From positions 124,001 to 186,916 of the forward strand of contig JACPAV010000005.1 of the NCBI GenBank assembly GCA_016180645.1: 62,916 bases of DNA. Reading direction: 5' to 3'. Shown one piece after another: positions 6,617-24,210 of the stretch (within the stretch, counting starts at the first letter, position 1; the number at the start of each line of letters is the position of its first letter). Source of the stretch: Nitrospirota bacterium. GTDB taxonomy: Bacteria; JACPQY01. The notes beneath the pieces were generated by a model that ran no database searches, had not been told where the DNA came from, and saw nothing but the letters and a program-made list of their open reading frames with translations. The position numbers and the translations under genes are program-made.

Positions 6617-6747
6617 CCCCGCGTGACCCCGCACCCACCTCAATGGAAAAGTGGACAAGTGGACGAGTGCGCGCACATCACGGATGGCCGCTGCTTCACC
6701 GCCCGATCACCCGGACACTGGGCCACCTCCAAAAGGATAGCTGCAAA

Positions 6748-7875
6748 GTGACAGGGGATCTGCTCAACCACCATCGGGAATATCTCGATGACCGCATCGC
6801 GCAAGCCCTGTACCGGAGGGCCATTCGTCGAATCGTTCGACCGGGCGATGTCGTTGTCGACCTCGGAGCGGGCACGGGCATCCACTCCATGGAGGCGTGT
6901 AGAGCGGGGGCGAGGAAGGTGTATGCCCTGGAGTGTGGAGACATGGCCGTGCTTGCGAGGGACATCATCGGCGAATCACCGTTCAGCCGTCGAATCTCCG
7001 TCATTCACGAGCACTCCTCATTCGTGCGGCTGCGGGAAAAAGCGGACGTCATCATTTCCTACCTCGGCCCCAGCGACCTCGTTCGGTCGCTCCCGCCGGC
7101 CCGCGCGCGCTTCCTGCGCCGGGGTGGGCGAACCATTCCCTCCCACCTCCGGTTCCGGTTCGGCCCCGTGGAGGCGCCGGACGTCTACGCGGCGCGAATT
7201 GATGCCTGGAGAAGGCGGAGGGGCGCGGATTTCACGGCCGCGCGCCGATGCGCGGCCAACACGGCCCACACGACCCATTGGCTTCCCTCCCACTTTCTCT
7301 CTCGACCTCGCCCCGCGTTCACCCTCCCGTTGGATCCAGGCGTCCACCGGCCCTGGAAATCCAACGGCACATTCGTTTCCGCGCGCGACGGAACGCTCCA
7401 CGGGATCGGGCTCTGGTTCGAGTTCCGGTTGGCCCGGGGGATCTGGCTCTCCACGCGACCCCCGCTCCGGCTGTCACCCGCCGTCCACAGGCACGCCTTT
7501 CTCCCGCTCGAACGGCCGCTGCCGGTGCGGGCCGGGGAGCGCCTGCGGCTCCGTCTGACTCTCCTGCCCGGATTTGAGTGGATGTGGAGATGGAGCGTCC
7601 ATTCCTCATCTCATGCGCTTGCCGATCAGTCGTCCTTGGATGGCCTGCTCCTTTCAGCGGATCGAATTCAGGCCGCCGAGGGCTCCGCCCGCACAAGGCT
7701 GAACGCCCGCGGTCAAATAACACAGTTCGTGCTTGAGAGGTGCCGGAAAGGCCACACCCTGGATCAGATCACCGCGGCCTTGAGCCGCCGCCCTATGACC
7801 CTCTCGGGCAACCGCCGGGAGGCGCTCGACGTCACCCGAAACATTCTCGCCGATTTTGCCCGGCGCCCCAGGTGA
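6748..7875 (+). CDS. SAM-dependent methyltransferase, PRMT-like fold, with C-terminal winged-helix/RRE-like extension
   Basis: HREYLDD...YRRAI, VVDLGAGTG, ARKVYALE, GGRTIP, LHGIGLWF; GTG 6748 with AAGGA upstream. Confidence 0.8.
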   Translation: MTGDLLNHHREYLDDRIAQALYRRAIRRIVRPGDVVVDLGAGTGIHSMEACRAGARKVYALECGDMAVLARDIIGESPFSRRISVIHEHSSFVRLREKADVIISYLGPSDLVRSLPPARARFLRRGGRTIPSHLRFRFGPVEAPDVYAARIDAWRRRRGADFTAARRCAANTAHTTHWLPSHFLSRPRPAFTLPLDPGVHRPWKSNGTFVSARDGTLHGIGLWFEFRLARGIWLSTRPPLRLSPAVHRHAFLPLERPLPVRAGERLRLRLTLLPGFEWMWRWSVHSSSHALADQSSLDGLLLSADRIQAAEGSARTRLNARGQITQFVLERCRKGHTLDQITAALSRRPMTLSGNRREALDVTRNILADFARRPR

Positions 7876-8714
7876 AGCCGGAAACCGGGGTCCTGCTTCG
7901 CGAACTGGACTCGAACGGGGAGGTCTCCTTCGAGGCTCGGGAAGGCCGGGGAGGGTACCGACTCCGATGGCCCCGGCTCGCCACCGTCCACATCACGAAG
8001 CGCAAGCAGCGAGTCACCGTGATCCCCGAGCGGGGATCCCCCCGCGCCTCGCTTGCTCCCATCCGCCGCATCGCCCGGGCGTATGCGGTCAGCCTCGGCG
8101 GCAGGCAGCCTCTCCACGCCACCGTGCTCACCGGTCACGGGGGAACGCTCGCCCTCCTCGGGACGCCCGGCGCGGGAAAATCGACACTGGCTCTGGCCAT
8201 GCTCGACGAAGGTTGGCGCCTGGTCACTGACGATGTGCTGTTCTACCGGACGCATTCCCGCGCGATCCGACCCGTTCTGCGTCTCCCGATGCTGAAGGTC
8301 AGGCCCGACGGCATCGCGCCGTTCCCGAAGTTCCCCTCGATCCCGCCCCTGAGGCTCCGCGGCAAGCCGCGCTACGATCCTCGTTACGGAAAACTGATGA
8401 TTCCCCTTCCGAAAATCTCTCACGGCGGAAAGATCGATGTGTTTGTTCGCCTGCGCCGCTCGCGCAAGGGGCACATCAGCGGCCGGAGGCTCTCACCGTC
8501 CCAATCCACCTTGAACCTCATCGTCGCCATGTTCAATGGAGCTCTGCGCCCCCGTCGCGTCCGTATCCGGCAAATCCTGGAGGCCGCATCCCTCGCCTCC
8601 AAGGTGCCCGTGTGGGAGCTCCGATATCCGACGGGAAAGAGACATCTGAAACGCGTGCCGGAGGCGCTGCAAGGCATCCTGCGACAAACTCAAGAGGGCC
8701 GAAGCCGGGACTGA
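7872..8714 (+). CDS. HPr-kinase-like (lasso peptide kinase family) protein K1
   Basis: LHATVL, Walker A GTPGAGKST, LVTDD; GTG overlaps the upstream TGA. Confidence 0.85.
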   Translation: MKPETGVLLRELDSNGEVSFEAREGRGGYRLRWPRLATVHITKRKQRVTVIPERGSPRASLAPIRRIARAYAVSLGGRQPLHATVLTGHGGTLALLGTPGAGKSTLALAMLDEGWRLVTDDVLFYRTHSRAIRPVLRLPMLKVRPDGIAPFPKFPSIPPLRLRGKPRYDPRYGKLMIPLPKISHGGKIDVFVRLRRSRKGHISGRRLSPSQSTLNLIVAMFNGALRPRRVRIRQILEAASLASKVPVWELRYPTGKRHLKRVPEALQGILRQTQEGRSRD

Positions 8715-8720
8715 CCACGC

Positions 8721-10385
8721 ATGGGCGGGATCTGCGGCATCCTCAACGCTACCGGCCACGCCTCGACCGGGGATCTGCACACGATGCTGTTCATGCTCTC
8801 CCACCGCGGCATCGGCGCTCCCGGCGCGTGGTCCTCCACCCCCGCGGCGCTCGGTCATTGGGATTCTCACACCCTTGACCCGGAACGTCGGGGGGTCCAG
8901 CCCTTTCACGACGGTTCCAACGGCCCTTGCATCGTCTTCGATGGGCGCCTCGACCACCGGGATGCCTTGCTGTCCGATCTGTGCCTCGATCGCGCAACGG
9001 ACGTTGAACTCGCGCTGGCCGCCTACTTGCGTTGGGGAGACGATGCATGGACGCATCTCCTCGGCGACTTCGCGCTGGCCCTCTGGGACCCGCGCGAGGA
9101 CTGCCTGCTACTGGCGAGGGACCCCGTCGGCGTCAGGCCTCTCTTTTACTCCGTTTGCCCGACCCGATTCGTTTTCGCCTCGGAGGCCAAAGCGATTCTG
9201 GCTATGACGGATGTCGTTCGCGCTCCGGATCCGGAGAGCATGGCGGAACTGAAGCGATATCGTTTCCGCCGTCATGAGTACACGTTTTTCCAAGGTATCC
9301 TCCGGGTGCGCCCCGGCCAGAGGCTCAGAGTCGACCGGCGAGGCATCGACCGGCGCGCATTCTGGAAGCCCGTGTGCTCCCCTCGCCCGAACGGCATGGA
9401 GCCGGAGGAGGCCCACAACCAATTCAGAAGACTCTTCATCGAGGCGGTGCGAGACCGGCTTCCGGCCCGCGGAACGGCGGCGATCATGCTGTCCGGAGGT
9501 TTGGACTCCTCTTCCATTGCGGTGGCCGCCTCCCATGCCCGCGGTCTGAAGACGACCGGCTGCCCCGCGCGTCTGGAAGCCTACACGCTGCTCTGGAAGG
9601 ATGGAGAGGACGAACGACGCCTGAGCCGGATCGCGGCCGAGAAGGCCGGCCTCCACGTATCCCCTGTGATGTTGGACGATGTGGAACTCGATCCCACCCC
9701 CGCGTTGGTCTTCGAACACGAGACGCCGCTTCTCAACCCCATCGACCAGGTCTACGGCAAGCTGTACCGCGCGGCGGCCGCAGCCGGTCATCGCATCCTT
9801 CTGAACGGAGAATGGGGAGATGACCTCCTCCACGGCGGGGCCTTCCTGGCCGACCTTCTCGTCTCGGGGCGCTGGAAGGCATTCGCAAGGCAGATCCGGG
9901 GTTTCCGCGACAACGAGGGGATCCCCATTCGCTCGATGTTGCGCTACCTCCTCGAATGCCTTCTCCTGCCGCGCCGGGATACCCCGAAATTCGCCACCCA
10001 CGCTCAAGAGCAAATCTACGAAGCGGTCTTTGTCCCTCTCAAACTGCTGGCCATCGAGAACCTCGAACGCGGGGCCGCCGCGCATGGCATCGAAATCAGA
10101 CTTCCCTATCTGGATCTCCGGCTCATCGAATTCCTGTTTCGGGTCCCCGGCGAATGGCTCGCTGAGGAAGGAATCGGCAAACAACCGCTTCGGAAAGGTT
10201 TGGCCGACCTGCTGCCCGGGGAGATTTCCGGACAGCCCCGCAAAGACAATACGCCCTTGTTCCGCGTGCCCTCGACCTTCCCGGCGTCAGGACGGGAGGG
10301 CGATATGAGAGCCTACTCTTCCGCCTGGTCCGCCAAGGCGGAAAGCGAATGGCGATCCGTCTGGTTCGGCCGGCCGGCTAAGTAG
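8721..10385 (+). CDS. Asparagine-synthetase-like lasso cyclase C1
   Basis: HRG, DGRLD, GDFALALWD, ARDPVGVRPL, PP-loop LSGGLDSS, RLPYLD; no Cys at position 2. Confidence 0.85.
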   Translation: MGGICGILNATGHASTGDLHTMLFMLSHRGIGAPGAWSSTPAALGHWDSHTLDPERRGVQPFHDGSNGPCIVFDGRLDHRDALLSDLCLDRATDVELALAAYLRWGDDAWTHLLGDFALALWDPREDCLLLARDPVGVRPLFYSVCPTRFVFASEAKAILAMTDVVRAPDPESMAELKRYRFRRHEYTFFQGILRVRPGQRLRVDRRGIDRRAFWKPVCSPRPNGMEPEEAHNQFRRLFIEAVRDRLPARGTAAIMLSGGLDSSSIAVAASHARGLKTTGCPARLEAYTLLWKDGEDERRLSRIAAEKAGLHVSPVMLDDVELDPTPALVFEHETPLLNPIDQVYGKLYRAAAAAGHRILLNGEWGDDLLHGGAFLADLLVSGRWKAFARQIRGFRDNEGIPIRSMLRYLLECLLLPRRDTPKFATHAQEQIYEAVFVPLKLLAIENLERGAAAHGIEIRLPYLDLRLIEFLFRVPGEWLAEEGIGKQPLRKGLADLLPGEISGQPRKDNTPLFRVPSTFPASGREGDMRAYSSAWSAKAESEWRSVWFGRPAK

Positions 10386-10437
10386 CAGAGCGTTCAGGCT
10401 CTGCAAGCAGATGCGCGCAAAGACTCTTGTGCGCATC
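10385..10437. terminator. Two tandem hairpins between convergent C1 and precursor A1
   Basis: GCAGAGC/GCTCTGC (10385-10404) and GATGCGCGCAA/TTGTGCGCATC (10410-10437); no clear U tract. Confidence 0.45.
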
Positions 10438-10438
10438 C

Positions 10439-10633
10439 TTAGTTATGGTTGCTGAAGGCGGTCTTGTTCGTCGGATCTTTTTCGATGGATCCCCCTCCCC
10501 CGCGCGTCAACGCCGTCAGATCGCCGTATTCAATCAGCCGTGGAGCGGCGTAGCGTTGCCGAAGGCCGGTTGGACCGGCACTCCGGAGGGATCCAACGCC
10601 TGTGCCCTTCGAGCGTCTCCGCTTTTGAACCAT
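10439..10633 (-). CDS. Lasso peptide precursor A1 (64 aa)
   Basis: Leader YAAPRLIEYGDLTALTR (YxxPxL...G...T-2); core GGGGSIEKDPTNKTAFSNHN with acceptors E7/D9; GGAGG upstream. Confidence 0.88.
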   Translation of the reverse strand: MVQKRRRSKGTGVGSLRSAGPTGLRQRYAAPRLIEYGDLTALTRGGGGSIEKDPTNKTAFSNHN

Positions 10634-12330
10634 GCTTCCTCCCAAGAGTTTCTCGCTGCCGCCCGCCAGAGCCTCATGGCCCCGCCGGGAGTTCCGTTCT
10701 TGTAGCCACATTCGGCCAGTTTGTTCGCCCAGAAAGCCGTGGCCACCGCCTTGCTGCGCCGCGCCGCGGTTCGCTCCGGAAGGATGCCTCTCAAACCCTC
10801 ACGAAGGAGCCGTTTCCCAACCCCTGCCCGAATCCGCATCCCGGCAGGCATCCTGAATACCAGTTCGACCAAACGCCGGTCCAGAAAAGGAAAACAAACT
10901 TCCACCCCTTGATACGCGGCGCCCATGTCGAACGATTCCAGCGTCATCGTATGGTAGCAGCCGAAGAGGGAGCCGTAAAGTTCCCTTTGATTGCACGTGG
11001 GGAAGACCGGACCTCCGGTGTTGGGCAGAAGCAGATACCGGAGCGCCCGCATCAACGCCGCCCTCCAATTCCCGACGTCGCTTTCCCCGATCCGTCGGAT
11101 CTCCCGGTAGAACTCCACCGGCCGGCCGGCCCGGATCAGGTCCCCAAGAAAACTCATGCCGGCCATCATCTGATCGCCCCAGAATCCGGTGAACACCCTT
11201 CGCGCGCCCCGCTTCGCCGCCGCCCCGAACATGCCGACGTAAAGATTCGGATCCTGCACCTCCACGAACGGCGACTCCAATTCGACCGCAAGCCGGTCCA
11301 GATGGTCCGTCGGCCGGATATCGTCCGCGTCCACCACCGCATTCGGAAGCTTCAGACACGCCGCGGCCGGCCCAAAATGTTCCCTCTCATTCTCAAACGC
11401 GCCAAAAACGACCGACTGTGTGTGCAGGCGGGATCGGTCCTCACCTTGTGCCACGTGCGAAGCGGCAGCGGCGATGGAGGTGGAGTCCAAGCCTCCCGAA
11501 AGCGTGAAGACAACGTTTCCCTCCTTGGGAATTCTCCGCCGAACGCCCTCCACAAATACCTTTCGGAAACGGCTCAACCACGCGGACTCGCTCAAACCTC
11601 CCATGGGCGGCCCGTGGGGAGGAACCCAATACGTCTCGCACCGCAAACGGTCCTCCTCTACGCGCATTCGCTCTCCGGGCAGAACGCGCCGTATCCCCTC
11701 GAAGAAACTGTTCTCCAGTGCTCGGAACTTGAACCGCTCGTATTCCGCCATTTTCAGTTCGCTTGGCCGGCACGGGACCCCCGGCACGGCCAGAATGGCT
11801 TTGGCTTCCGACGCGAAGATGAATCTTCGCCCATCCCGATAGTAGAAAAGAGGCTTGACCCCCAGGGGATCTCGGGCCAGCATGAGGCGGCCGCGTGGTC
11901 CATCCCACACCGCCAGAGCGAAATCCCCGAACAGCCACTTGGGGAGGTCCCACTCGAACTGCCGATACGCCGCCGCCAGCGCGCCTTCGGTGGTTCTCCT
12001 CAGATCCGCCGACGAGGCGGCCGTGTTCGAGCGGCGCGGGAAACCCTCATGCCCGCGTGCGCTGCCTTCGCGCCCTCGCCCCGCCGCGCGGCTGATCACA
12101 TCCACGTTGTCGATCCGGCCGTCCATCACCATACTGACCCCATCGGAGCTCAGCGGGCGGAAGGTCGTCTCATCGACCACCATGAGGGCGTGGACGAGTC
12201 CAACGGGGCCATCGCGAACGATCTTCAACCCGTCGGGCGCCCGGTGCCGAAGGGCATACCCCATCCGCTCCAAATGATCCGCGGGAGCCCCGCGGCCGTC
12301 CACCTGGAGAATACCGGCTATGCCGCTCAC
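10534..12330 (-). CDS. Asparagine-synthetase-like lasso cyclase C2
   Basis: GTG start (M)SGIAGIL, HRAPDG, DGRIDN, LSGGLDST, FPFLDRRLVE. Confidence 0.87.
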   Translation of the reverse strand: MSGIAGILQVDGRGAPADHLERMGYALRHRAPDGLKIVRDGPVGLVHALMVVDETTFRPLSSDGVSMVMDGRIDNVDVISRAAGRGREGSARGHEGFPRRSNTAASSADLRRTTEGALAAAYRQFEWDLPKWLFGDFALAVWDGPRGRLMLARDPLGVKPLFYYRDGRRFIFASEAKAILAVPGVPCRPSELKMAEYERFKFRALENSFFEGIRRVLPGERMRVEEDRLRCETYWVPPHGPPMGGLSESAWLSRFRKVFVEGVRRRIPKEGNVVFTLSGGLDSTSIAAAASHVAQGEDRSRLHTQSVVFGAFENEREHFGPAAACLKLPNAVVDADDIRPTDHLDRLAVELESPFVEVQDPNLYVGMFGAAAKRGARRVFTGFWGDQMMAGMSFLGDLIRAGRPVEFYREIRRIGESDVGNWRAALMRALRYLLLPNTGGPVFPTCNQRELYGSLFGCYHTMTLESFDMGAAYQGVEVCFPFLDRRLVELVFRMPAGMRIRAGVGKRLLREGLRGILPERTAARRSKAVATAFWANKLAECGYKNGTPGGAMRLWRAAARNSWEEAWFKSGDARRAQALDPSGVPVQPAFGNATPLHG

Positions 12331-12361
12331 AACACCCCCATCGCCACTGGATTCGAAAGAA

Positions 12362-12655
12362 CTATCGGAGGCGAACCAACCCCTTGCCCGCAAGCGTCCG
12401 CGCCAGCGTGAGGATGTCGCGTTGGGCCCGCTCCGCCGTTACGCGGTAGTTCCGCAACAGTCTCCTGCCGATCGCCTCAACGGCCTCCCCGCGCGCGATC
12501 CCTTTCCATATCAGCGCCGCGGCATCTTGGAGACCGTAATACCTTCCCTTCCGGAGGTCCAGAAGAACGATTTCTCCTCCCACTTCGCGCCAGACCACAT
12601 CCGGGGAGATCATCGCCCGCGATCCTACGCTGATTCTCCTTTTGTGATGCGCCAT
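12362..12655 (-). CDS. Lasso B1 / PqqD-family RiPP recognition element
   Basis: WREVGGEIVLLDLRKGRYYGL...IW...L...GLV pattern. Confidence 0.9.
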   Translation of the reverse strand: MAHHKRRISVGSRAMISPDVVWREVGGEIVLLDLRKGRYYGLQDAAALIWKGIARGEAVEAIGRRLLRNYRVTAERAQRDILTLARTLAGKGLVRLR

Positions 12656-13147
12656 TCAGACCGCGCTCGTATTCAGGCGGCTGCCGGCGCGCAGCCGGCT
12701 GCCCTTGAGGGTTTCGCGCGAGGAGGACGCGGCGACTGCCAGAAGGGGCTTCACTCGGCCGAACCGTCCGGCCCGCATCACGTCACGGCTCCCCTCCCGC
12801 ACCCAGGCATGCCCGTGCAGTCGACCTCTCTCCGGCCTCGCTGAGAGTCGCAACTCGACTCCAGGCGCCCCTCCCAAGAGCCAGTAGGCCGACAGTGCCC
12901 GGCGAAGGCAGGAACGCTCCCCCGGCACGAGGGGGTCCACCCTTTCAATCCAATGCGTGACCGCCGCAACATCCGAATCGACCGGTGCAGCGTGGTCGGC
13001 CCGCCATTGCAAGGCCCGGAGAATGATTTTGAAGGACACGACTCGGAGGGCCAGTTCGCAGACTCCCACGGCGGCGAGAGCGCGCACCGCGCGTCGCCTC
13101 TCGCGGGCTTCCAGGCGCCGGAAGCGCTGAAGCCGACCACGGCTCAT
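12656..13147 (-). CDS. Lasso B2 leader peptidase (transglutaminase-like)
   Basis: SCLRRAL catalytic Cys, HAW motif; ATG 13147 overlaps the ABC stop. Confidence 0.88.
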   Translation of the reverse strand: MSRGRLQRFRRLEARERRRAVRALAAVGVCELALRVVSFKIILRALQWRADHAAPVDSDVAAVTHWIERVDPLVPGERSCLRRALSAYWLLGGAPGVELRLSARPERGRLHGHAWVREGSRDVMRAGRFGRVKPLLAVAASSSRETLKGSRLRAGSRLNTSAV

Positions 13148-14925
13148 GCCGATGATCGCGCCAGTGCGATCGGCCGAGTCTGGCGTTCCTCGGCCCGGAC
13201 ATGCAGCATCCACAGGTGGTGATAAAGCCCTCCACGCGCCAGGAGATCGTCATGCGTCCCTTGTTCGATGATTCGGCCTGCATCCATCGCGAGAATAATA
13301 TCCGCGTGTCGGATCGTGCTCAAGCGATGCGCCACGGCGAGAACGGTCCTCCCCCTCCCCCATTCGGCGATCGCGTCCTGCACTCGCCGGTCCGTCTCGC
13401 TGTCCAGAGCGGACGTCGCTTCATCCAGAAGGAGAACCCGGGGGTCCTTCAGAACGGCCCGCGCGATGGCAATCCGCTGCCGCTCTCCCCCGGAAAGCAT
13501 CACCCCCCTCTGTCCGATCACGGTGTCCAGCCCTCGCGGCAGCGCCCGGATGAATTCCGTGACGCACGCGATTCGACAGGCATCCTCAATCTCTTTCTCG
13601 GTGGCGTCCAGCTTTCCATAACAAAGGTTTTCGCTCACCGTTCCCCCAAAGAGGATCGTCTCTTGAGGAACCCACGCGATCTGGCGATACAGACTTTCCT
13701 TCCGAACCGTCCGAATATCCTCGCCGTCCATCTCGATGCTCCCCGCGGACGGTTCGTAGAACCCGTGGATCAGTTGGATGAGAGTACTCTTCCCCCCGCC
13801 CGTCGGACCGACGACCGCCGCCACGCTCCCCGCCGGAATGTCCAGGCTCACGCCTCGAAGCACCGGGGGACCGTCGGGGTAGGAAAACTCGACCTCCCTC
13901 ACACGAATTCGACCTCGCAGGCGTGGAAGGGCTCTCGCTTCGGTCGGCTTCGTCGGGTCTCCCGGTGTCTCCAGGAGCGAGAGCACACGCTCCGAGGCGC
14001 CTTGCGCCTCCTTCAGACGACCCACAAGGCTGGTGGCGGTGATGAAGGGTCCCATGAGGAGACCGCCATACAGGGCGAAGGCCACCAGATCTCCCGCGCT
14101 CATCCCCCCCTCGATGACCTGCACACCTCCGTACCACACCATCCCCGCCGCTCCCATCACCCCCAGGAGCGTCAGCCCCGGGGCCAGGATGGCATTCACC
14201 GCCGCCCTGCGGAGAGCAAATCGGACCCCTTCCCACACTTGGGTCCCGAACCGTTCCGCCTCGAATTCTTCCCGTTGGAACGATCGCACGGCGCGGATGG
14301 AGGAGAGCGCTTCCTCCGCGGTGGAAAGCGCCTCGGCCGAGCGATCATGGTAGTCGCGCGAGAGCCGCCGCATTCTCCGGCCGGACCACTTCGCCGCCAC
14401 CACAACGGCCGGGACGACCGCCAGAACCCAGAGCGAGAGGCGCGCGTTGAGATAGATCAGCAGGGCCGTCGCCCCCGAGAACGTTACCGCATGCCTGGCC
14501 AACTCCGAAGGCACGGTTTCCAGGAAGCTCTGGAGGGCGCCCACGTCGTTGGAGAGGCGCGACACGAGCTCTCCCGTCTTGTGACGCGAGAAATAGTCGA
14601 ACGGTTGCGCCTCCAACCGCTCGAAGAGCCGGACCTTGAGCCGCGCGCCCACCCGCTGCCCGAACCGAACAACCAAGTAGGCATGACCCACTCCGAATCC
14701 GGCCTGGAGAATGTAGAGGGCGCCGACCACGGCCATCACGCCGGGAAGCGCGGCGAGATTCTTCTCCGAGGCGATGACATCCACCAAGCGCCTGGCCTGC
14801 CACAAAAGAACCAGATTCGCGCCGGCGCCGAGCATCTGCAGGGCCGACGCCGCCAAAAGGGAGGGGGTCTCGGGCCGAACGAACGGAACGAGACTGCGCA
14901 GAAATCCCGGCAAACTTCCGGTCAA
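13144..14925 (-). CDS. ABC exporter, fused permease/ATPase
   Basis: TM domain, GPTGGGKST, LSGGERQR, LLLDEATSALD. Confidence 0.95.
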   Translation of the reverse strand: MTGSLPGFLRSLVPFVRPETPSLLAASALQMLGAGANLVLLWQARRLVDVIASEKNLAALPGVMAVVGALYILQAGFGVGHAYLVVRFGQRVGARLKVRLFERLEAQPFDYFSRHKTGELVSRLSNDVGALQSFLETVPSELARHAVTFSGATALLIYLNARLSLWVLAVVPAVVVAAKWSGRRMRRLSRDYHDRSAEALSTAEEALSSIRAVRSFQREEFEAERFGTQVWEGVRFALRRAAVNAILAPGLTLLGVMGAAGMVWYGGVQVIEGGMSAGDLVAFALYGGLLMGPFITATSLVGRLKEAQGASERVLSLLETPGDPTKPTEARALPRLRGRIRVREVEFSYPDGPPVLRGVSLDIPAGSVAAVVGPTGGGKSTLIQLIHGFYEPSAGSIEMDGEDIRTVRKESLYRQIAWVPQETILFGGTVSENLCYGKLDATEKEIEDACRIACVTEFIRALPRGLDTVIGQRGVMLSGGERQRIAIARAVLKDPRVLLLDEATSALDSETDRRVQDAIAEWGRGRTVLAVAHRLSTIRHADIILAMDAGRIIEQGTHDDLLARGGLYHHLWMLHVRAEERQTRPIALARSSA

Positions 14926-15095
14926 TCTCGGGTCTTGACGCAGCTCGCGTTCCCAACCGTGCGGCAGGTGAAACCCGGAGATCGCGAGGAGTCACAGACG
15001 ATCGCCAACGCCTCGACCATCTTGCTGTAGACGAGTTCGGGTTTCTTATACGGCTTCCGGCCTATCGGTGATTTCCGATCTTGATTCTTCATCAT
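14922..15095 (-). CDS. RiPP precursor A3 (57 aa, Cys-containing; not in ORF track)
   Basis: Hand translation MMKNQDRKSPIGRKPYKKPELVYSKMVEALAIVCDSSRSPGFTCRTVGNASCVKTRD; YxxPxL leader; starts 13 nt after the rSAM stop and its TGA overlaps the ABC TTG. Confidence 0.85.
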   Translation of the reverse strand: MMKNQDRKSPIGRKPYKKPELVYSKMVEALAIVCDSSRSPGFTCRTVGNASCVKTRD

Positions 15096-15108
15096 TCGAT
15101 CCCTTCGG

Positions 15109-16245
15109 TTATCCGGCTGTTGAATTGTCGCATGTTACCTGTCCGCAGGAACATTCGCTGCGGTTTCCAGATCCCTCCGTCAGCCCCGCGGCTCGCAGGG
15201 GAGCTGAGGTCCTCCCCTCTTTGCTCTGAACGGCCTGATACACAACCTCCGCCTGCTCACAACAGGTCGGCGAAGGCCCCTTGAGATCCCCGGTCTCCAG
15301 ATGGGCCACGCCGGTGCATCGGCTGCAATAATCCTTCACGGAGCAACTCCGGCAGGTTTTCAGGTCCCCGAATCGAAGCGCGCGGATCTGCTTCAACTGT
15401 TCTTCTCCCCACAGATCTCCGAAGGAGCGTTCCCGCAGGTTTCCGATGGCCACCCGCATCGCCACACACGGCATGAGATCTCCATAGGGAGAAATGTACG
15501 CGGAAGACGACCCCGCGCCGCACAGCGGATCGTCATTCTGATAGTCCCTGAGCACAAACTCTTCCGCAAATCCGGGGGTTGTCTCCTTGATGAAGCAGGC
15601 GAGCTCCGGAGGCATGAGACGGAGGCTTTGCGGCGATCGGTCGCCGTTGTCCTTCGGCACGATCGAAAGATCGCTTCGCAACTTTGCGCCGATCTTTTCC
15701 CCCAAGGCCATGACGTCATGGTACTGATCCTGATTCTGTTTCATGATCGGCATGTTCATGTACGTTCGGACGCCCCGTTCATTCAAGAGGCGAATTCCCC
15801 GCACGGACTTCTCGAATGAACCCTTCCTGAGCGTGATCGAATCGTGAATGTCCGGATGCGCTCCATAGATGCTCACCAGAACCGCGAGGGGCTTCCAAGA
15901 GGCGATTTCGTCGGCCAGCGTTCCGTTCACCATGGTCGCAGTCGTCAGCAGGCGAAGGGCGAAGCCCAGTTCGCGCGATCGCCGGGCGATCTCGATGAAA
16001 TCTCGCCGCATGAAGATCTCCCCCCCGCTGAATGTGATGAACAGCGTGCCCGCACTCGCGAGCCCCTCCAACACGCCATACACCTGATCCGTCGTCAATT
16101 CCGGCCGGTCCATGACCACGCGGTAGCAATGCACGCAGTCCAGGTGACACACGTTCGTGACGTCCCAGTGCACGGTGAGAGGGATGGCACGCTCATGCGC
16201 CTTGTCCAGAATCGTCTCGTAGTAGTCCAGAGTCTTCACGGCCAT
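15109..16245 (-). CDS. Radical SAM/SPASM peptide maturase
   Basis: CHLDCVHC, SGGE, SPASM CGAG...ISPYGDLMPC...CRSC...YCSRC. Confidence 0.92.
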   Translation of the reverse strand: MAVKTLDYYETILDKAHERAIPLTVHWDVTNVCHLDCVHCYRVVMDRPELTTDQVYGVLEGLASAGTLFITFSGGEIFMRRDFIEIARRSRELGFALRLLTTATMVNGTLADEIASWKPLAVLVSIYGAHPDIHDSITLRKGSFEKSVRGIRLLNERGVRTYMNMPIMKQNQDQYHDVMALGEKIGAKLRSDLSIVPKDNGDRSPQSLRLMPPELACFIKETTPGFAEEFVLRDYQNDDPLCGAGSSSAYISPYGDLMPCVAMRVAIGNLRERSFGDLWGEEQLKQIRALRFGDLKTCRSCSVKDYCSRCTGVAHLETGDLKGPSPTCCEQAEVVYQAVQSKEGRTSAPLRAAGLTEGSGNRSECSCGQVTCDNSTAG

Positions 16246-16246
16246 G

Positions 16247-16537
16247 TCATGTGCCCCCTTCGGCAACCAGGAGTTTCTTGGAGGTAAGGGTGGCCAGCAG
16301 TTCTTCCACGTCTTTCAGCGCCGTCTCCGCGTCCACCTCGAAGGCGTCGCTGAGTCGTTGGGCCATGGCGCCGGCCGTCATCGAACCGTCCGCCAGCGAC
16401 CACACAAAACTTCCCGTCTCGTTCAGGATGTGAACCTCCTGTGTCGAAGGATCGACGATCACGGCTTCTCCGTCCACGATCCGATGCGCCACATCGGGGG
16501 AGCGGCGGATCGTGGCTACGCCATTCCCCGCGCTCAT
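16247..16537 (-). CDS. PqqD family protein (second RRE)
   Basis: RIVDGEAVIV...LNETGSFVWSLADG...DVEELL. Confidence 0.9.
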   Translation of the reverse strand: MSAGNGVATIRRSPDVAHRIVDGEAVIVDPSTQEVHILNETGSFVWSLADGSMTAGAMAQRLSDAFEVDAETALKDVEELLATLTSKKLLVAEGGT

Positions 16538-17262
16538 GCCGTGGCCTCCTCGAGAAACGGCTCGATGAGGTCACTCAAGTTCAGCGTCAACTTGAAGGCC
16601 GGTACCCGTTCCAGAAACCGCAGCATCCGTTCCATCAATTGGTCCGGAGTCACCGCGGCGCCTTCCACCTGGGGGCGCAGGAGGAGGTCCGCCACGGCGC
16701 GCGCGGGCGAGAGTCTTTCGCGCCTGGATTTCTCCCCTTGCGCGAGCACAAATACCGCGTGGACGGGGTACCTTGGACCCTCCAGCGCCACGGGGGCCCA
16801 GGCCAGAGGACGTGAGTCCGTGAGCCCGTGAGCCCGTGAGCCGGAAGGATGGATGCAGACCAGGTCGTCGTGGAGAATGGGCCGGGCGAGGCGCGAAAGC
16901 GTGGTGGTCTTCCCCGCTCCGGAAGGGCCGCAGAAGAGGGTGGCTTCACCGTTCTTCATGGCGGCTCCGGCATGCAGGACGAAACCGCCCTCCCTATATG
17001 CAAGCACGGTCCTCACGATCCGAAAGGCGTTCGTGCGCCCGAAGGGCTCAAATCCCGGCTGCACGTTGAACTTCGCCAAACCGGCCTCCCAGTCCATCCG
17101 GCCCGCATAGTGCTCGGTCTGAACGACGAGCGAATGGGTTGAATCTTGAATGACCGGGATGGCCGCCCCCGAATCCGGCTCGGCCGAGATCACGATCTGC
17201 ACGGCCCCTGCCCTCGTACCCTGCTCCGAATCAAACCCTCTCACCTCCCATGGCACCATCAT
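16534..17262 (-). CDS. HPr-kinase-related P-loop protein K3 (rSAM-associated type)
   Basis: VLHAGAA, GPSGAGKTT, ILHDD. Confidence 0.75.
   Translation of the reverse strand: MMVPWEVRGFDSEQGTRAGAVQIVISAEPDSGAAIPVIQDSTHSLVVQTEHYAGRMDWEAGLAKFNVQPGFEPFGRTNAFRIVRTVLAYREGGFVLHAGAAMKNGEATLFCGPSGAGKTTTLSRLARPILHDDLVCIHPSGSRAHGLTDSRPLAWAPVALEGPRYPVHAVFVLAQGEKSRRERLSPARAVADLLLRPQVEGAAVTPDQLMERMLRFLERVPAFKLTLNLSDLIEPFLEEATA
16811..16842. repeat. Intragenic 8-bp tandem repeat (CGTGAGYC) x4
   Basis: cgtgagtc cgtgagcc cgtgagcc cgtgagcc. Confidence 0.85.
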
Positions 17263-17443
17263 AGGAGAAGATCACCCCGGTGTCCAACCATGGATGGTGC
17301 GGCACCGATCCTGCCAAGCGAGCCAGGGAAGGCGAGCGCTGAAGATCGGGGCCAGCCATGGATGGTGCGGTACTTGGCGATACAAGGCAGACAGGAAGTC
17401 TGCCCTTTCAACTCTCTCGACCCGGTTGTGTTATCCCTCTCCC

Positions 17444-18271
17444 ATGCGGTATTCAAGCTCGATGCCGGGAGTCTCAAGCAACGGGAGCAAGCGCGTGCTG
17501 GCCCGCCACAGGTTTCCCAGCGGCCGGATTGGATTCGAGGCCTTCGAAAACCGGCAGCGATACGAACTCCGGTGGGCGGGGGCTGCGCGCGCCCTTGTGC
17601 CGAAAACCGGCCTACGCGCGCGGGTCATTCCGCAGCCCAACGCCCGCCCCATCACGCTGGCGGTACTCCGGCATATCGTGGCGGCCTATGCATCGAGCCT
17701 GAGGGGAGTGGAATCCCTGCACGCCACGGTCGTGTCGAATCATCATGGCGCGATCGCTCTACTGGGACCCTCAGGTGAAGGAAAATCGACGCTCGCGCGC
17801 CACTTCATGATGCGGGGTTGGACCCTGCACACGGACGACATCCTCTACCTCAGATTCTCCCAACGTTCCGTGTGGCCTGCCCGCCGCCGCGCCTGGTTCA
17901 AGGTCGCCCCGGAGTCAGCGCTCCGTGCGCGCGGGGACCGGGACTATGACCCGAACTTCGGAAAGCGAATTACCCTTCTCCCGCCTCCTAAAGCGGCCAA
18001 GCCCATTCGGGCCTTCATTCGGTTGAGCCGCCGGCGCGCTTGCCGAATTCATGCCACACCCGTGAGCCCATCCCAAGCAGCCCTCCACCTCATGGCCAAC
18101 GCCTACAACGACATTCTTTGCCCACCCCCCGTCCTGGCGCGTCAGTTCCGTTGGTCCGCCCGGCTGGCCCAAGCGGTCCCGCTCTGGCAGCTCGAGTACC
18201 CGTCGGGCACACGCCACCTGGGTCGAATCGAGCTGTCCTTGGCGAACCTGCTCAAAAGCCTCCCACGGTGA
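17444..18271 (+). CDS. HPr-kinase-like protein K2 (paralog of K1); start uncertain (17444 or 17462)
   Basis: YELRW, LHATVV, GPSGEGKST, LHTDD, YDPNFGK, LEYPSG; colinear with K1. Confidence 0.83.
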   Translation: MRYSSSMPGVSSNGSKRVLARHRFPSGRIGFEAFENRQRYELRWAGAARALVPKTGLRARVIPQPNARPITLAVLRHIVAAYASSLRGVESLHATVVSNHHGAIALLGPSGEGKSTLARHFMMRGWTLHTDDILYLRFSQRSVWPARRRAWFKVAPESALRARGDRDYDPNFGKRITLLPPPKAAKPIRAFIRLSRRRACRIHATPVSPSQAALHLMANAYNDILCPPPVLARQFRWSARLAQAVPLWQLEYPSGTRHLGRIELSLANLLKSLPR

Positions 18272-19902
18272 CCGGAATCTGCGGGCTTCTCAGTCCCCGC
18301 CCTGAACAGGCCTCGGGGAAACTTTGGAACATGCTGTTCATGCTCAGCCATCGAGGAAACGGCATTCCTCAAATGATCCATCGGCCCCCGGCGGCTTTGG
18401 GCTTGCTTTCGCAAGACGCAACATCCAACAGAATATCTTTGCGGAGCCGTACGACATGCCTCTTCGACGGTCGCCTGGACAACCGTCGGGAGATGCAATC
18501 GGCCTTGAACACGCATGGAGCGACGGATGCCGACGTCGTTGGCGCCGCGTACGACCGGTGGGGACCCTACGCATTCCGAAAATTGAGGGGAGAATACGCG
18601 CTGGCACTCTGGGACCCGGAAAACCGGCGCCTGTATCTCGCGCGAGACCCGGTCGGTCTGCGCCCCCTCTACTATGCCTGCTCGCACGACACCCTCTCCT
18701 TCGCCACCGAGGCCAAGGCCCTGCTCAGCCTGCCTGACCTTCCTCGAAAGCCGGACACGGAGCGACTCCATGAAATGAACACAGGACGCTACCGATCAAG
18801 CGACCGAACCTTCTTCGAGGGCGTCCAAAGAATCGTCCCCGGCGAGTTCCTTCAGGCGACCCGGGAAGGAGTTGCGCGCGGGCGGCTGTGGGACCCCGAT
18901 CTCCGATCATCCGTCCGTTTTCCCTCCCCCGAAGGCTATCGCGCACAATTCCGCGAGCTGTTCTTCAACGCCGTGCGGCGGTGCATGCCGCGAAAGGGAA
19001 CCGTGGGCGTTCTCCTGTCGGGAGGCATCGATTCTTCCTCTGTAACCGCCGTTGCCGCCGAAATCGCGCGCCGTGAAGGATCGGGCGTTTCGGTCGAAGC
19101 CTTCTCGCTCTATTCCGACCGCTTCCCCGACGAGCGACTCTATTGCGAGGAGGTCGTTCGGACGGCCGGAATCCGGGGCCACGCCATTCGAGCCGACGAC
19201 ATCAGTCTTTCGCATGATCTGTCACAGCGGCTCTTTGAACAGGAAATCCCGCCCGTTCCGCCCGAAGCCAATCTTTTTGACCGCGTATACAAAGAGGCCG
19301 CCCGCCGAGGAGTGCGGGTGTTACTGAGCGGCCACTGGGGAGACCAGGTCATGCTGAGCCACGCTTTGCTCGCGGATCTCCTTGCCTCGGGTAGGTGGTT
19401 CGAAGCCTGGAAATATGTGCGCGGCTACCGTCGCCAGGATCGCGCCGCGGCAGGCCCCCTCCTCCGGTGCGCGGCGTCCTTTCTCGTCCTGCGACGACGA
19501 AGCACGCCGGACTTCCCCAGCCGCGCGCAAAAAGAGGTCTATGAAAACGTCTTCGAGCCGGTCAACGTGCTCTTCCGCGAAGCTCTTGAGCTCGCATCCG
19601 CCCACCGTGGCCTTCGGTTTCAGATGCCGTTTCTCGACCTCGACCTGATCGAATTCGTCTTGGCGATACCCGCCACGCAGCGGGTCAGCAACGGCGTCGG
19701 AAAACAACTGCTGAGGGAATCCCTGTCCGATCTCCTGCCCGCCAGGGTGCGCGAGCGAAAGGACAAACGGGACTACACGCTGTCCATTCCGCCCAGGCTT
19801 GCCCAAGCCGGATTCAGCGGCGACACCCCCGACGACCTTTCGGAGCACTGGTTCCGGCATGCGCGGGAGCAGTGGTCCAAAGCATGGTTCGACAACCCCT
19901 GA
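18268..19902 (+). CDS. Asparagine-synthetase-like lasso cyclase C3 (paralog of C1)
   Basis: GTG start (M)TGICG, MLFMLSHRG shared with C1, LSGGIDSS, MPFLD. Confidence 0.85.
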   Translation: MTGICGLLSPRPEQASGKLWNMLFMLSHRGNGIPQMIHRPPAALGLLSQDATSNRISLRSRTTCLFDGRLDNRREMQSALNTHGATDADVVGAAYDRWGPYAFRKLRGEYALALWDPENRRLYLARDPVGLRPLYYACSHDTLSFATEAKALLSLPDLPRKPDTERLHEMNTGRYRSSDRTFFEGVQRIVPGEFLQATREGVARGRLWDPDLRSSVRFPSPEGYRAQFRELFFNAVRRCMPRKGTVGVLLSGGIDSSSVTAVAAEIARREGSGVSVEAFSLYSDRFPDERLYCEEVVRTAGIRGHAIRADDISLSHDLSQRLFEQEIPPVPPEANLFDRVYKEAARRGVRVLLSGHWGDQVMLSHALLADLLASGRWFEAWKYVRGYRRQDRAAAGPLLRCAASFLVLRRRSTPDFPSRAQKEVYENVFEPVNVLFREALELASAHRGLRFQMPFLDLDLIEFVLAIPATQRVSNGVGKQLLRESLSDLLPARVRERKDKRDYTLSIPPRLAQAGFSGDTPDDLSEHWFRHAREQWSKAWFDNP

Positions 19903-19956
19903 TCGATCCTGCCCCCGGTCCGTGATCGCATTATCCTCCGATGGAACGCTCCTGCA

Positions 19957-20097
19957 TCAATCCGACCCCGTGGCCCTGGTTTTGTTCGTTTCACTCTTAA
20001 CCGTCCCCTTGGCCTTCGTCAGTGTCCGAAGGTCGCCATAGGCGATGAGGCGTGGCGCCTTGTAGGTTCTTCGCCGCTTCCTTTTGTTCCGAACCAT
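19957..20097 (-). CDS. Lasso peptide precursor A2 (46 aa)
   Basis: MVRNKRKRRRTYKAPRLIAYGDLRTLTK leader; core AKGTVKSETNKTRATGSD with E8 acceptor; GGAGG upstream. Confidence 0.88.
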   Translation of the reverse strand: MVRNKRKRRRTYKAPRLIAYGDLRTLTKAKGTVKSETNKTRATGSD

Positions 20098-21746
20098 ATC
20101 TCCTCCCAACGTTCTCTCGTGAAAGCCCTCCAAGGCCTCATGGCTCTCCCCACGGGCCGGCGTGGGAGCCCGGCTTCTTCCTGCATGGCCTCCCAGAAAT
20201 CGGTCCAATCGCCCTTGCCCTTTCGGCTGGCGATGAAATCCGGGAGGATGCCGGCCAAGCCATCCCTCATCAATCTTTTTCCGATCCCATCGCGCACCCG
20301 CTCTTCCGCCGGAACGGCGAACGCAAACTCCACCAGGCGCCTGTCGAGGAACGGATACCGCACCTCGATCCCGCGGAACGCGGCGCCCAGATCGGCCGAC
20401 TCGAGGGCCATCAGATTGTACAAGCCAAACAGGGCGGAATGCAATTCCCTCTGATTGCACGTGGGGTAGAAATGCCCGCCCAAGCCGGGAAGCACAAGAA
20501 ACCGCAACATCCGGCGGAGGCTTTCAAGCGTGCCGCCCGTGTAGGTGCGGCTGAGAATACGGAATTCCTTCCAAAGCGCCCCCCACTGCCCCGAGCGGAG
20601 CAGATCACCCAGGTAGCCGGTCCCCATCATGGCCTCGTCGCCCCAGAGACCCACCAGCAGAACGCGGCCGAGATCCGCCGCGCGTCGAAACAATCCCTCG
20701 TAGTAGTTGGGGTCGTACACTTCCACAAAAGGCGTTTCAAGTTCATACGCCAGTCTATCCACATGCTCTCTCAACCTGAAGGCTGAAGCATCCACCACGA
20801 TATTCGGCAGGTTCCACATCTCGGCCAGCTTCCCGAAATAGCGGGACTCATCCGGAAAACGCCCGGGCACGCCTGAAATCGTGTGCAGCCCAAGCCCATG
20901 CCCCCCCTGTCCATCCGCCCCGCGCTTCGCGTGGAGGGCGGCCGCCGTGATGGACGTGGAATCCAGGCCACCCGAAAGCGTGACCACCATGTCTCCCTTT
21001 CCGGGCATCCTGCACCGGACGGCCTCCATGAACAGCTTTCTGAATCGCCTGAGATACACGCGACGCCCGTCGAGCCTGATCGGTTCGCACGTTGGCGGAT
21101 GCCAGTACGAGGCGCGGAGGATCCTGCCTTTTTCTATCCCAATCGCCTCCGCCGGGAGAACCCTCCGAATGCCTTCGTAGAAGGTGAAATCCATGCCTCG
21201 AAACCGAAAGCGGTCATACTCCTCGAGCCTGGATTCGCACGGCCGACAAGGAACTCCGTCCACCGCCAGAATCGCCTTTGCCTCGGACGCAAAGATGAAC
21301 CGTCTCTCCTCCACCCTGTAGAAGACCGGCTTCACCCCGGCCGGATCCCGCACAAGCAACAATCTCTCCCGATTTGCATCCCAAATCGCGATCGCGAAGT
21401 CGCCCAGGAGCCACCGGGGGAAGTTCTCTCCCCAGCGCCCATATGCGCTCCAAACCACTTCCTCCGTCGTCTCCGCCCGATCCCCGAAGCGCCTGCGCAG
21501 AACCTTCTTCAAAAGGTCCGCATTGTCGATTCGGCCGTCCATGACCAGAGTGATCCCATCCCGCGAGATCGGACGCGGCGTGGTCCCGTCCACCTTCACC
21601 ATGAGATGACCGAGGCCCGCCTCCCCCCCCGCGAAGACGGATGAACCGTCCGGTCCACGATGGGCGAGAGCGTCCAGCATCGGTTGCAGGTTCATCTCGC
21701 CCACGAGCGTTCCGTCGAAATGCAGAATCCCGGCTATGCCGCTCAT
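20019..21746 (-). CDS. Asparagine-synthetase-like lasso cyclase C4 (paralog of C2)
   Basis: MSGIAGIL, HRGPDG, LSGGLDST, PTCNQREL shared with C2, YPFLDRRLVE. Confidence 0.87.
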   Translation of the reverse strand: MSGIAGILHFDGTLVGEMNLQPMLDALAHRGPDGSSVFAGGEAGLGHLMVKVDGTTPRPISRDGITLVMDGRIDNADLLKKVLRRRFGDRAETTEEVVWSAYGRWGENFPRWLLGDFAIAIWDANRERLLLVRDPAGVKPVFYRVEERRFIFASEAKAILAVDGVPCRPCESRLEEYDRFRFRGMDFTFYEGIRRVLPAEAIGIEKGRILRASYWHPPTCEPIRLDGRRVYLRRFRKLFMEAVRCRMPGKGDMVVTLSGGLDSTSITAAALHAKRGADGQGGHGLGLHTISGVPGRFPDESRYFGKLAEMWNLPNIVVDASAFRLREHVDRLAYELETPFVEVYDPNYYEGLFRRAADLGRVLLVGLWGDEAMMGTGYLGDLLRSGQWGALWKEFRILSRTYTGGTLESLRRMLRFLVLPGLGGHFYPTCNQRELHSALFGLYNLMALESADLGAAFRGIEVRYPFLDRRLVEFAFAVPAEERVRDGIGKRLMRDGLAGILPDFIASRKGKGDWTDFWEAMQEEAGLPRRPVGRAMRPWRAFTRERWEEIWFGTKGSGEEPTRRHASSPMATFGH

Positions 21747-24160: not shown

Positions 24161-24210
24161 GTCCCTATGACCGGAAGCCCTTCAACGCCTTGAGAAAGGC
24201 TTTCGGAGGA

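Follow-up and report, generated by a model that had tools for sequence, protein, structure and literature searches.

Within a 62,916-nt stretch of contig JACPAV010000005.1 from a Nitrospirota bacterium, in the following called the window, a run of minus-strand genes encodes a kinase-like protein (K3), a discrete PqqD-family recognition element (RRE) of the type found in the biosynthesis of peptides that are made by the ribosome and modified after translation (RiPPs), a radical S-adenosylmethionine (rSAM) enzyme with a SPASM domain, and an MsbA-like ATP-binding cassette (ABC) exporter. Between the last two lies a small open reading frame (ORF), here termed A3, which is very probably a genuine precursor-peptide gene of this cassette. 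All coordinates are positions within the window, and A3 and its gene run on the minus strand (Table 1). The translation of A3 comprises the 57 residues MMKNQDRKSPIGRKPYKKPELVYSKMVEALAIVCDSSRSPGFTCRTVGNASCVKTRD, followed by a stop codon (window:14922-15095(-)), and displays the Cys pattern C34-x9-C44-x7-C52.

The rSAM gene ends with the stop codon TAA at 15109-15111, and the first ATG of A3 (ATG 1) is located at 15093-15095, leaving a spacer of 13 nt. The second ATG (ATG 2) at 15090-15092 shows the better Shine-Dalgarno spacing and agrees with the start of P0002, a near-twin of 56 amino acids. Comparable purine-rich runs precede five of seven homologous peptide ORFs (L001, L003, L005, L021, and L020); L022 has none, and for L018 the upstream region lies outside the printed strand. 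At the other end, the TGA of A3 overlaps a TTG (14923-14925). Following an in-frame stop, this TTG is the earliest codon at which the ABC frame can begin, and the overlap points to translational coupling. Upstream of A3, K3 and PqqD overlap by 4 nt, and PqqD and rSAM by 20 nt. The interval of 186 nt between the rSAM and ABC genes is the sole long gap in this overlapping run, and A3 fills it exactly. The GC content at third codon positions (GC3) is 0.71 in the A3 frame and 0.73-0.77 in the surrounding genes. Four DNA runs from one groundwater study cover the stretch, with zero listed differences inside A3. A low-depth contig of 174 nt from a relative overlaps positions 14929-14980 with four differences, not enough for a dN/dS-type test of strain variation. 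No RNA data set is listed for window:13500-17300.

The initial annotation had described a minus-strand ORF of 57 amino acids with a C-x9-C-x7-C pattern at this position, starting 13 nt past the rSAM stop, with its TGA overlapping the TTG of the ABC gene, and carrying a YxxPxL motif. Sequence and translation bear this out base by base, the motif being present as YKKPEL.

Table 1. Features of the A3 locus and of the surrounding gene cluster (positions within the window).
Feature	Position	Strand	Remarks
A3 precursor ORF	14922-15095	(-)	57 codons from ATG 1, 56 from ATG 2; TGA 14922-14924
Shine-Dalgarno-like GAAGGGA	15100-15106	(-)	4 nt before ATG 1, 7 nt before ATG 2; direct reading
Leader motif Y16-K-K-P19-E-L21	15033-15050	(-)	YxxPxL RRE-binding type, K14-P15 ahead; Tyr and Pro invariant in alignments A1 and A2
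Cys-bearing C-terminal part C34-D57	14925-14996	(-)	putative core region
C34	14994-14996	(-)	A3 residue
C44	14964-14966	(-)	A3 residue
S51	14943-14945	(-)	A3 residue aligned with the terminal Ser of the family
C52	14940-14942	(-)	A3 residue, third Cys
rSAM/SPASM enzyme, 385 aa	15109-16266	(-)	PF04055 and PF13186; CHLDCVHC near residue 40, full SPASM Cys set
Discrete PqqD-family RRE, 96 aa	16247-16537	(-)	PF05402, 1e-17
K3 kinase-like protein, 242 aa	16534-17262	(-)	PEPCK/HprK fold model
MsbA-like ABC exporter, 593 aa	13144-14925	(-)	PF00664 and PF00005; without peptidase domain
Lasso B2 protease	12656-13213	(-)	NF033537, 42 bits vs cut-off 33
Lasso B1 RRE	12362-12655	(-)	PF05402
Lasso cyclase	10534-12393	(-)	library matches
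Lasso precursor A1	10439-10630		same-strand run with B1, B2, and cyclase; NF033521, 25.5 vs cut-off 19
Lasso precursor A2	19957-20100		NF033521, 20.4 vs cut-off 19
NTP_transf_5 nucleotidyltransferase	5218-6423	(-)	cluster edge
Methyltransferase	6643-7875	(+)	cluster edge

Near-twin and family of A3

P0002 is the one near-twin of A3 in a collection of 5.8 billion proteins. It is 91% identical to A3 and differs from it at five positions, all of which fall within the first 11 residues, with none in the following 45; according to our own arithmetic, such N-terminal clustering has a chance probability of about 1e-4. The RRE motif and the entire Cys-bearing part are identical in both peptides. The confinement of changes to the far N-terminus is the pattern expected under purifying selection.

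Two alignments were used, namely alignment A1, which holds nine peptides found beside rSAM homologues including A3, and alignment A2 with 34 rows. A profile of alignment A1 retrieved 605 cluster representatives (50% identity) at E<=1e-3 from 1.84 billion representative proteins, 12 of them at E<=1e-10. All of the 150 best representatives contain YxxP, and 149 end in Ser, the exception being P0002. The first core Cys is located at Tyr+18 in 137 of them, and the C-x9-C spacing is present in 112. The family consensus reads KKPYxKPxFRxERVFETxAL[AS]CGK-x7-C-x6-S. A3 shares its leader signature, as R13-K14-P15-Y16-K-K-P19 corresponds to K/R-P followed by YxxP, and it keeps the register, with an offset of 18 from Tyr16 to Cys34 and C34-x9-C44 thereafter.

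A hidden Markov model (HMM) of the 149 representatives, built without A3 and P0002, ranked A3 first when applied to all 95,056 segments of the six-frame translation of the genome (E-value 1.2e-8), although these representatives had been retrieved by a profile that included A3. Family peptides on contigs C11, C44, and C23 follow in this ranking, with none further below E 0.4. The window has a GC content of 58-66% and is full of long spurious ORFs, which would suit a chance open frame in GC-rich DNA. The genome-wide HMM rank, the conserved position, the twin being called as a gene, and the coding-type GC3 speak against this explanation and render it extremely improbable; the reality of the gene is effectively settled.

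The family does not appear in the resources searched. No Pfam or NCBIfam release 20 model meaningfully matched 15 family peptides at E<=10. For A3, no NCBIfam precursor model was obtained at E<=0.01, and the FlmA family (NF052472) was the sole match at E<=10, with an E-value of 0.068 and 13.3 bits vs a cut-off of 30. This match is regarded as chance; FlmA peptides are DD(I/V)LF-type arginase substrates, as described in the accessible text of PMC12703449. In the Protein Atlas, the clusters nearest to A3 consist of unnamed hypothetical proteins (score 0.92). A literature search, in which broader results were judged by title and start of the abstract, found no publication describing the family or the cassette.

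Association of the peptides with an rSAM cassette

The association was examined from both sides, beginning either with the enzyme or with the peptide. Searches with the rSAM enzyme yielded seven loci in the set genome_contigs, four of which (L001, L003, L005, and L007) contain a small peptide ORF. These four ORFs share K-P-Y-x-K-P-x-[LFI] and a Cys pair, and the three complete ones end in Ser. In two further loci, L002 and L006, the contig stops on the side where the peptide would be expected. Among 41 related genomes, eight rSAM matches were obtained, and the HMM detected a peptide at four of them, namely the A3 locus, a second locus on contig C44 of the same genome, and loci in G008 and G015. 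A similar small ORF beside the rSAM gene of G023, the fifth of the eight, was found by eye. The first seed HMM overlooked the L018 peptide and gave no match in L004, L016, L017, and L019. In metagenomes, where many contigs are shorter than 2 kb, 9 of 23 rSAM loci contain a peptide.

The second rSAM/SPASM enzyme of the genome (L020:7669-8978, G000:C44) is about 28-29% identical to that of the window. A family peptide of 54 amino acids, ending in ...CGKVSSDPGCVTDGFLDS, starts 15 nt after it. Among the neighbours checked at this locus, none matches a kinase- or PqqD-type Pfam model, and homologues of K or PqqD were not found within 8 kb. The genome encodes two more family peptides, at G000:C11:77321-77629(-) and G000:C23:10139-11149(-), each of which contains CGK and ends in Ser.

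Two more distant ORFs were observed next to rSAM genes. The ORF L018:7731-7916(-) directly follows an rSAM homologue and has the pattern YAKPTV...C..C..C...S, while L005:7120-7347(+) contains YETPKL, four Cys, and a terminal Ser, with three rSAM genes nearby. Both look like sister families.

For the search from the peptide side, the pattern VFETxALACG, taken from a 9-row alignment, was back-translated and applied to a one-genome-per-species collection. This resulted in 292 matches, of which 288 were confirmed; they belong mostly to Terriglobia and other Acidobacteriota, with some Burkholderiales. In tblastn searches of 80 of the confirmed loci, homologues of the rSAM enzyme were found in 66, of PqqD in 65, of K in 64, and of an S24/S26-like peptidase in 67, while ABC homologues were present in nine and neither lasso cyclase (C) nor lasso B2 homologues in any. 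Most often, the genes are arranged as peptide, peptidase, K, PqqD, rSAM. Seven loci out of the 80 (L032, L036, L037, L038, L039, L042, and L045) have the order K-PqqD-rSAM-peptide-peptidase, which is the order of the window with the peptidase in the slot held here by the ABC gene. L022 also displays K-PqqD-rSAM-peptide.

The initial annotation had taken A3 for the substrate of the rSAM enzyme. Conserved small ORFs beside homologous rSAM genes, found from the rSAM side as well as from the peptide side, support this assignment, as do the 66 of 80 peptide loci that contain an rSAM homologue.

The cassette lies in one strand run with the lasso genes B1, B2, C, and A1, and the YxxPxL motif occurs in all three leaders of the window, those of the lasso precursors A1 and A2 and that of A3. 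It is therefore conceivable that rSAM, PqqD, and K3 tailor the lasso peptides, with A3 as a bystander. However, the 80 family loci contain the cassette without lasso cyclases or B2 proteases, which identifies it as an independent unit and argues against the rSAM as a lasso-tailoring enzyme. Moreover, the nearest relatives of the rSAM are cassette enzymes adjoining A3-like peptides, and the predicted cores of A1 and A2 lack Cys. A tailoring role towards the lasso peptides is thus very improbable.

Cassette enzymes and the proposed modification of A3

The rSAM enzyme starts directly with the CxxxCxxC region and thus lacks a fused RRE that would serve for recognition. Its identity to the cassette rSAMs of L001-L004 amounts to 37-38%. 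With every NCBIfam model its score lies below the cut-off; the best values are 126 bits for NirJ2 and AhbD, 115.5 for MftC (cut-off 265), 113 for NirJ, 109.8 for StsB (625), 106 for TIGR04053, and 102 for GeoRSP. Lower values were obtained for ScmE (92.2), PqqE (90.2 vs 381), AlbA (73 vs 850), and SkfB (69.5 vs 300). Among enzymes of solved structure, the best sequence relative is the sactisynthase SkfB (E 1.7e-14), followed by PqqE. The C-terminal tail of the rSAM contains ECSCGQVTC (window 15109-15250, residues ~340-385), and alignments to relatives stop at residues 339-367.

The nearest NCBIfam model of the PqqD protein is that of the lasso PqqD (B1), with 43 bits vs a cut-off of 70. A structure prediction of its complex with A3, using custom alignments, scored 0.44, vs 0.00 for the best of three controls. 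Of 80 solved complexes, 58 reached the mark applied to such scores, as did 2 of 110 mismatched pairs, and seven of the 80 solved complexes as well as both passing mismatches passed with scores of at most 0.60, the range in which the present value falls. At least 86% of contacts agreed between prediction runs, and the predicted local distance difference test (pLDDT) of the partner was at least 52.

The sequence matches of K3 do not go beyond the P-loop level. Its structural model (19 homologues, mean pLDDT 72.7) was compared with known structures using Foldseek, resulting in an E-value of 3e-7 for ATP-dependent phosphoenolpyruvate carboxykinase (PEPCK) and of 4e-5 to 3e-4 for the HprK/P structures 1knx, 1ko7, 1kkl, and 1jb1. 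On the basis of this model, K3 is assigned to the HprK/PEPCK kinase fold and regarded as a diverged representative of the cassette kinases, in line with the initial suggestion that Ser/Thr residues of A3 may be targets of K3. The GxSGxGKTT loop, H97, and D132 are retained. The next kinase gene lies on the plus strand, and its longest ORF (17150-18271, +) shares 113 nt (17150-17262) with K3 (-) in a head-to-head arrangement. The actual start of this gene is probably further downstream, so that a short region for divergent promoters would remain between the two.

Taken as a whole, the statement that A3 is the substrate of the K3, PqqD, and rSAM cassette, and that its maturation includes Cys crosslinking, appears rather likely. 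The only core positions kept even in the most distant members (L021, L022, L018, and A3) are two Cys, corresponding to Cys34 and Cys44 here, and Cys crosslinking is for this reason taken as the likeliest reaction. Alternatively, A3 may be the cognate precursor of an rSAM with a different chemistry, such as formation of a C-C or C-O crosslink, epimerisation, or an MftC-like reaction at the C-terminus, with the Cys serving for a disulfide or metal binding. The NCBIfam scores for MftC and for NirJ- and AhbD-type enzymes, which are as high as those for sactisynthases, and the position of PqqE among the solved relatives are in line with this. The near-invariance of the terminal residue recalls pathways acting on the C-terminus, and the peptide on contig C44 keeps its terminal Ser without a kinase nearby, so that this residue may be of importance for the rSAM. 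Yet CGK, TQ, and N vary in the distant members in which the two Cys persist, A3 is no longer Ser-terminated, and the best solved relative is a sactisynthase. A non-thioether chemistry is accordingly a possible but rather unlikely explanation.

Several observations weigh against A3 as a crosslinked substrate of the cassette. The locus L004 has a full cassette and full flanks and no peptide within 6 kb, and three of the eight rSAM matches in related genomes (L016, L017, and L019) have no peptide nearby. Conversely, 14 of the 80 peptide loci lack an rSAM homologue; five of these end less than 1.8 kb downstream of the peptide, and the remaining ones look like extra, unlinked precursor copies. The peptides on contigs C11 and C23 have no rSAM homologue within 8 kb and may be precursors served in trans. 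Among the 23 metagenome_contigs loci, no rSAM relative exceeds 43% identity over a long stretch, and the A3 subtype thus rests on one twin. The best rSAM scores are spread over heme-d1/heme-b enzymes, MftC, StsB, GeoRSP, and ScmE, so the type of reaction cannot be read from homology. The predicted binding of A3 to PqqD provides weak support, and since RRE-leader complexes have already been solved, resemblance to these may explain the pass. Of the 58 columns conserved in at least 80% of its homologues, K3 shares only 28 and has lost 30; the GTPFxGE motif is missing, as are some 30 residues at the N-terminus.

A3 itself departs from the family as well. Residue S51 aligns with the last residue of the family and is followed by the six extra residues CVKTRD, including the third Cys, so that A3 ends in Asp instead of the terminal Ser. 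Furthermore, CGK of the family is replaced by CDS, and FET by VEA. In the neighbourhood, rSAM, PqqD, and K adjoin A3, and the homologue of the S24/S26-like peptidase of the family is not found on the contig of the window. The only clear homologue in the genome is located on contig C31 (L126:4261-10064), about 5 kb from a PqqD homologue, with an ATPase, an HD-domain gene, and a polysaccharide-export-like gene in between; it was rejected as the protease of A3, its neighbourhood being unlike the peptide cassette. Judged by its sequence, A3 is an atypical member of a large, almost invariantly Ser-terminated family.

The losses in K3, the missing peptidase, the loss of CGK and of the terminal Ser in A3, and the status of P0002 as the sole C-terminal outlier among the 150 representatives could also indicate that A3 and the cassette are a decaying remnant without a mature product. 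This is contradicted by the four cassette ORFs, which are intact and tightly packed, by the retention of CxxxCxxC and the SPASM Cys in the rSAM and of P-loop, His, and Asp in K3, and by the identity of core and motif in P0002. Decay is therefore considered improbable. The divergence of K3 and the internal position of S51 co-occur, and the two changes may be linked.

Comparison with known systems and proposed maturation

The initial annotation had compared the system with sacti- and ranthipeptides; the closest published relatives are instead the linear polyphosphorylated peptides (LPP). The LPP cluster lppA-K-B-S-D-N of Paenibacillus alginolyticus is described in the accessible text of Popov et al. 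2026 (PMC13381572), on which the following comparison is based. An RRE, a kinase similar to HprK, an MsbA-like pump, a leader with YxxP...FET, and an SpI-like leader protease are common to LPP and the A3 family. Both often occur near paeninodin-like lasso clusters and polysaccharide or capsule loci, represented here by NTP_transf_5 and a Wzc-like flank. In contrast to the A3 family, LPP clusters lack an rSAM, and the words radical SAM, SPASM, and Acidobacteri are absent from the accessible text of PMC13381572. LPP cores are long, variable, and phosphorylated at Ser3, and LPP are described there as restricted to Bacillota. Their leader consensus is YxxPxVLxHQxIxFETxxS, with cleavage by LppS after the Thr of FET (PMC13381572). 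Compared with this published consensus, FET lies two residues nearer to the Tyr in the A3 family, and a Cys stands at Tyr+18 where LPP has a Ser. The family is further distinguished by a short core, two invariant Cys, a terminal Ser, the rSAM/SPASM enzyme of the cassette, and a different phyletic range. Of the LPP gene set, the window contains the RRE, the kinase fold, the ABC exporter, and NTP_transf_5; the peptidase is absent, and the rSAM is additional.

Serine phosphorylation by HprK-like kinases together with a discrete RRE is described for LPP and Bsf precursors in the accessible texts of PMC13381572 and PMC10368454. LppA and BsfA are phosphorylated at Ser3, and ThcoK and SyanK act on a C-terminal Ser, as cited in PMC10368454. 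Phosphorylated lasso peptides (paeninodin type; BsfA/BsfK/BsfB1, PMC10368454) share a YxxPxL leader, a PqqD-type RRE, and an HprK-like kinase with the A3 locus. Lasso precursors carry Thr, rarely Ile or Val, at position -2, and their cores begin with G/A/S/C and provide an Asp or Glu at positions 7-9 for the macrolactam. A3 differs in having neither Thr/Ile at position -2 of the lasso register nor Asp/Glu at core positions 7-9. With its Tyr at -17, position -2 falls on A31; a cut before Cys34 places I32 there, and no ring acceptor follows. Likewise, CDSSRSPGF and VCDSSRSPG contain no Asp or Glu at positions 7-9. Since these two defining features fail and A3 gives no match to NF033521, A3 is, by sequence criteria, not a lasso precursor, in line with the initial annotation, which had noted the lack of a lasso core.

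A full-SPASM rSAM and a small Cys-containing precursor are also found in the sacti- and ranthipeptide systems of SkfB, AlbA, and StsB, whereas recognition is attributed to a separate PqqD here instead of an N-terminal domain. To our knowledge, neither a kinase nor the signal-peptidase-like protease of the relatives is a feature of these classes, and the sequence evidence does not suffice to place A3 among the sacti- or ranthipeptides. The SynChlorMet system (TIGR04248-TIGR04251, ScmC/D/E/F) has the same order of P-loop kinase-like protein, PqqD-like protein, and rSAM/SPASM, with only one rSAM in the present case. The scores are far below the cut-offs, with 27.9 vs 125 for K3/ScmC, 29.6 vs 100 for PqqD/ScmD, and 92.2 vs 400 for rSAM/ScmE, and no publication using the name SynChlorMet was found in the literature searched. 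In the case of mycofactocin and pyrroloquinoline quinone (PQQ), the MftC and PqqE scores lie under the cut-offs, and A3 matches neither precursor.

In PQQ, mycofactocin, lasso, and LPP systems, PqqD-type proteins present the precursor to a partner enzyme. By analogy, PqqD would bind the A3 leader around K-P-Y16-K-K-P19-E-L21 and present the peptide to the RRE-less rSAM; this step is deduced from the conservation within the family and the behaviour of PqqD-type RREs in lasso and LPP pathways. The rSAM/SPASM enzyme would then modify the C-terminal part, most likely by forming a Cys-based thioether crosslink of the sactionine or ranthionine type, to which roughly an even chance is given. The third Cys, Cys52, may provide a third link. 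The terminal Ser of the family and the HprK-fold kinase point to phosphorylation of that Ser. Accordingly placed by alignment, the candidate Ser for K3 in A3 would be S51, which is now internal.

Leader removal in the family is probably carried out by the signal-peptidase-like protease, with a cut either after FET, in analogy to LppS, or after the small-x-small motif AL[AS] before the Cys. As this protease is absent from the contig, the lasso B2/B1 pair or an unlinked enzyme would have to cleave the A3 leader, which is speculative; lasso B1 and B2 are candidates only. Once the leader is removed, export of the product may rely on the MsbA-like ABC pump, whose translation seems coupled to that of A3 and which scores 503 bits with TIGR02204, below the cut-off of 780.

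The genes around A3 constitute the hallmark set of phosphorylated-lasso-type clusters. According to the accessible text of PMC13381572, the NTP_transf_5 family includes LppN and a paeninodin tailoring enzyme. Four lasso-cyclase homologues are encoded within window positions 7740-21746, at 8721-10385(+), 10534-12393(-), 18040-19902(+), and 20019-21746(-), vs two lasso-leader peptides (A1 and A2), one B1/B2 pair, and three HprK-related proteins. Read from its sole Met (window 10439-10633), the A1 ORF would extend for about 100 nt, in a different frame, into the 3' end of the cyclase gene (10534); translation may instead begin at a GTG or TTG further inside. Two genes directly flank the supercluster at 21833-25254, of which one encodes a Wzc-like polysaccharide co-polymerase/tyrosine autokinase and the other an HD-domain (HD_5) protein.

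A more far-reaching, and doubtful, proposal is that two RRE-dependent pathways are fused at this locus. In that case, a cassette without its own protease and without a terminal Ser in its precursor would use lasso B1/B2 and the ABC exporter, and yield an rSAM-crosslinked, possibly phosphorylated three-Cys product of a class without a characterised member. A Tyr/Trp switch keeps leaders apart in Bacillota, as reported in the accessible text of Popov et al. (PMC13381572). If the fusion were real, one operon would contain three YxxPxL leaders and two discrete RREs, and features different from this switch would be needed to separate them or to allow their deliberate sharing.

The initial annotation recognised the gene, which is confirmed, and proposed its role as rSAM substrate, which is supported; it missed the size of the family, the atypical status of A3, and LPP as the closest relatives. 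The family comprises 605 clusters (50% identity) and occurs in no fewer than 288 species-level genomes, the majority from soil and peat Acidobacteriota; no description of it was found. Its product is probably an RRE-dependent, rSAM-modified, phosphorylated RiPP. The addition of an rSAM to the kinase, RRE, and signal-peptidase toolkit of LPP, characterised in 2026, predicts a new class of crosslinked and possibly phosphorylated peptides. A3 would be the outlier of this class, as it lies inside a lasso cluster, has no family protease and no terminal Ser, and contains a third Cys. This makes it possible to test how RREs discriminate between near-identical leaders, whether one RiPP class can use the leader protease of another, and which role the terminal Ser plays.

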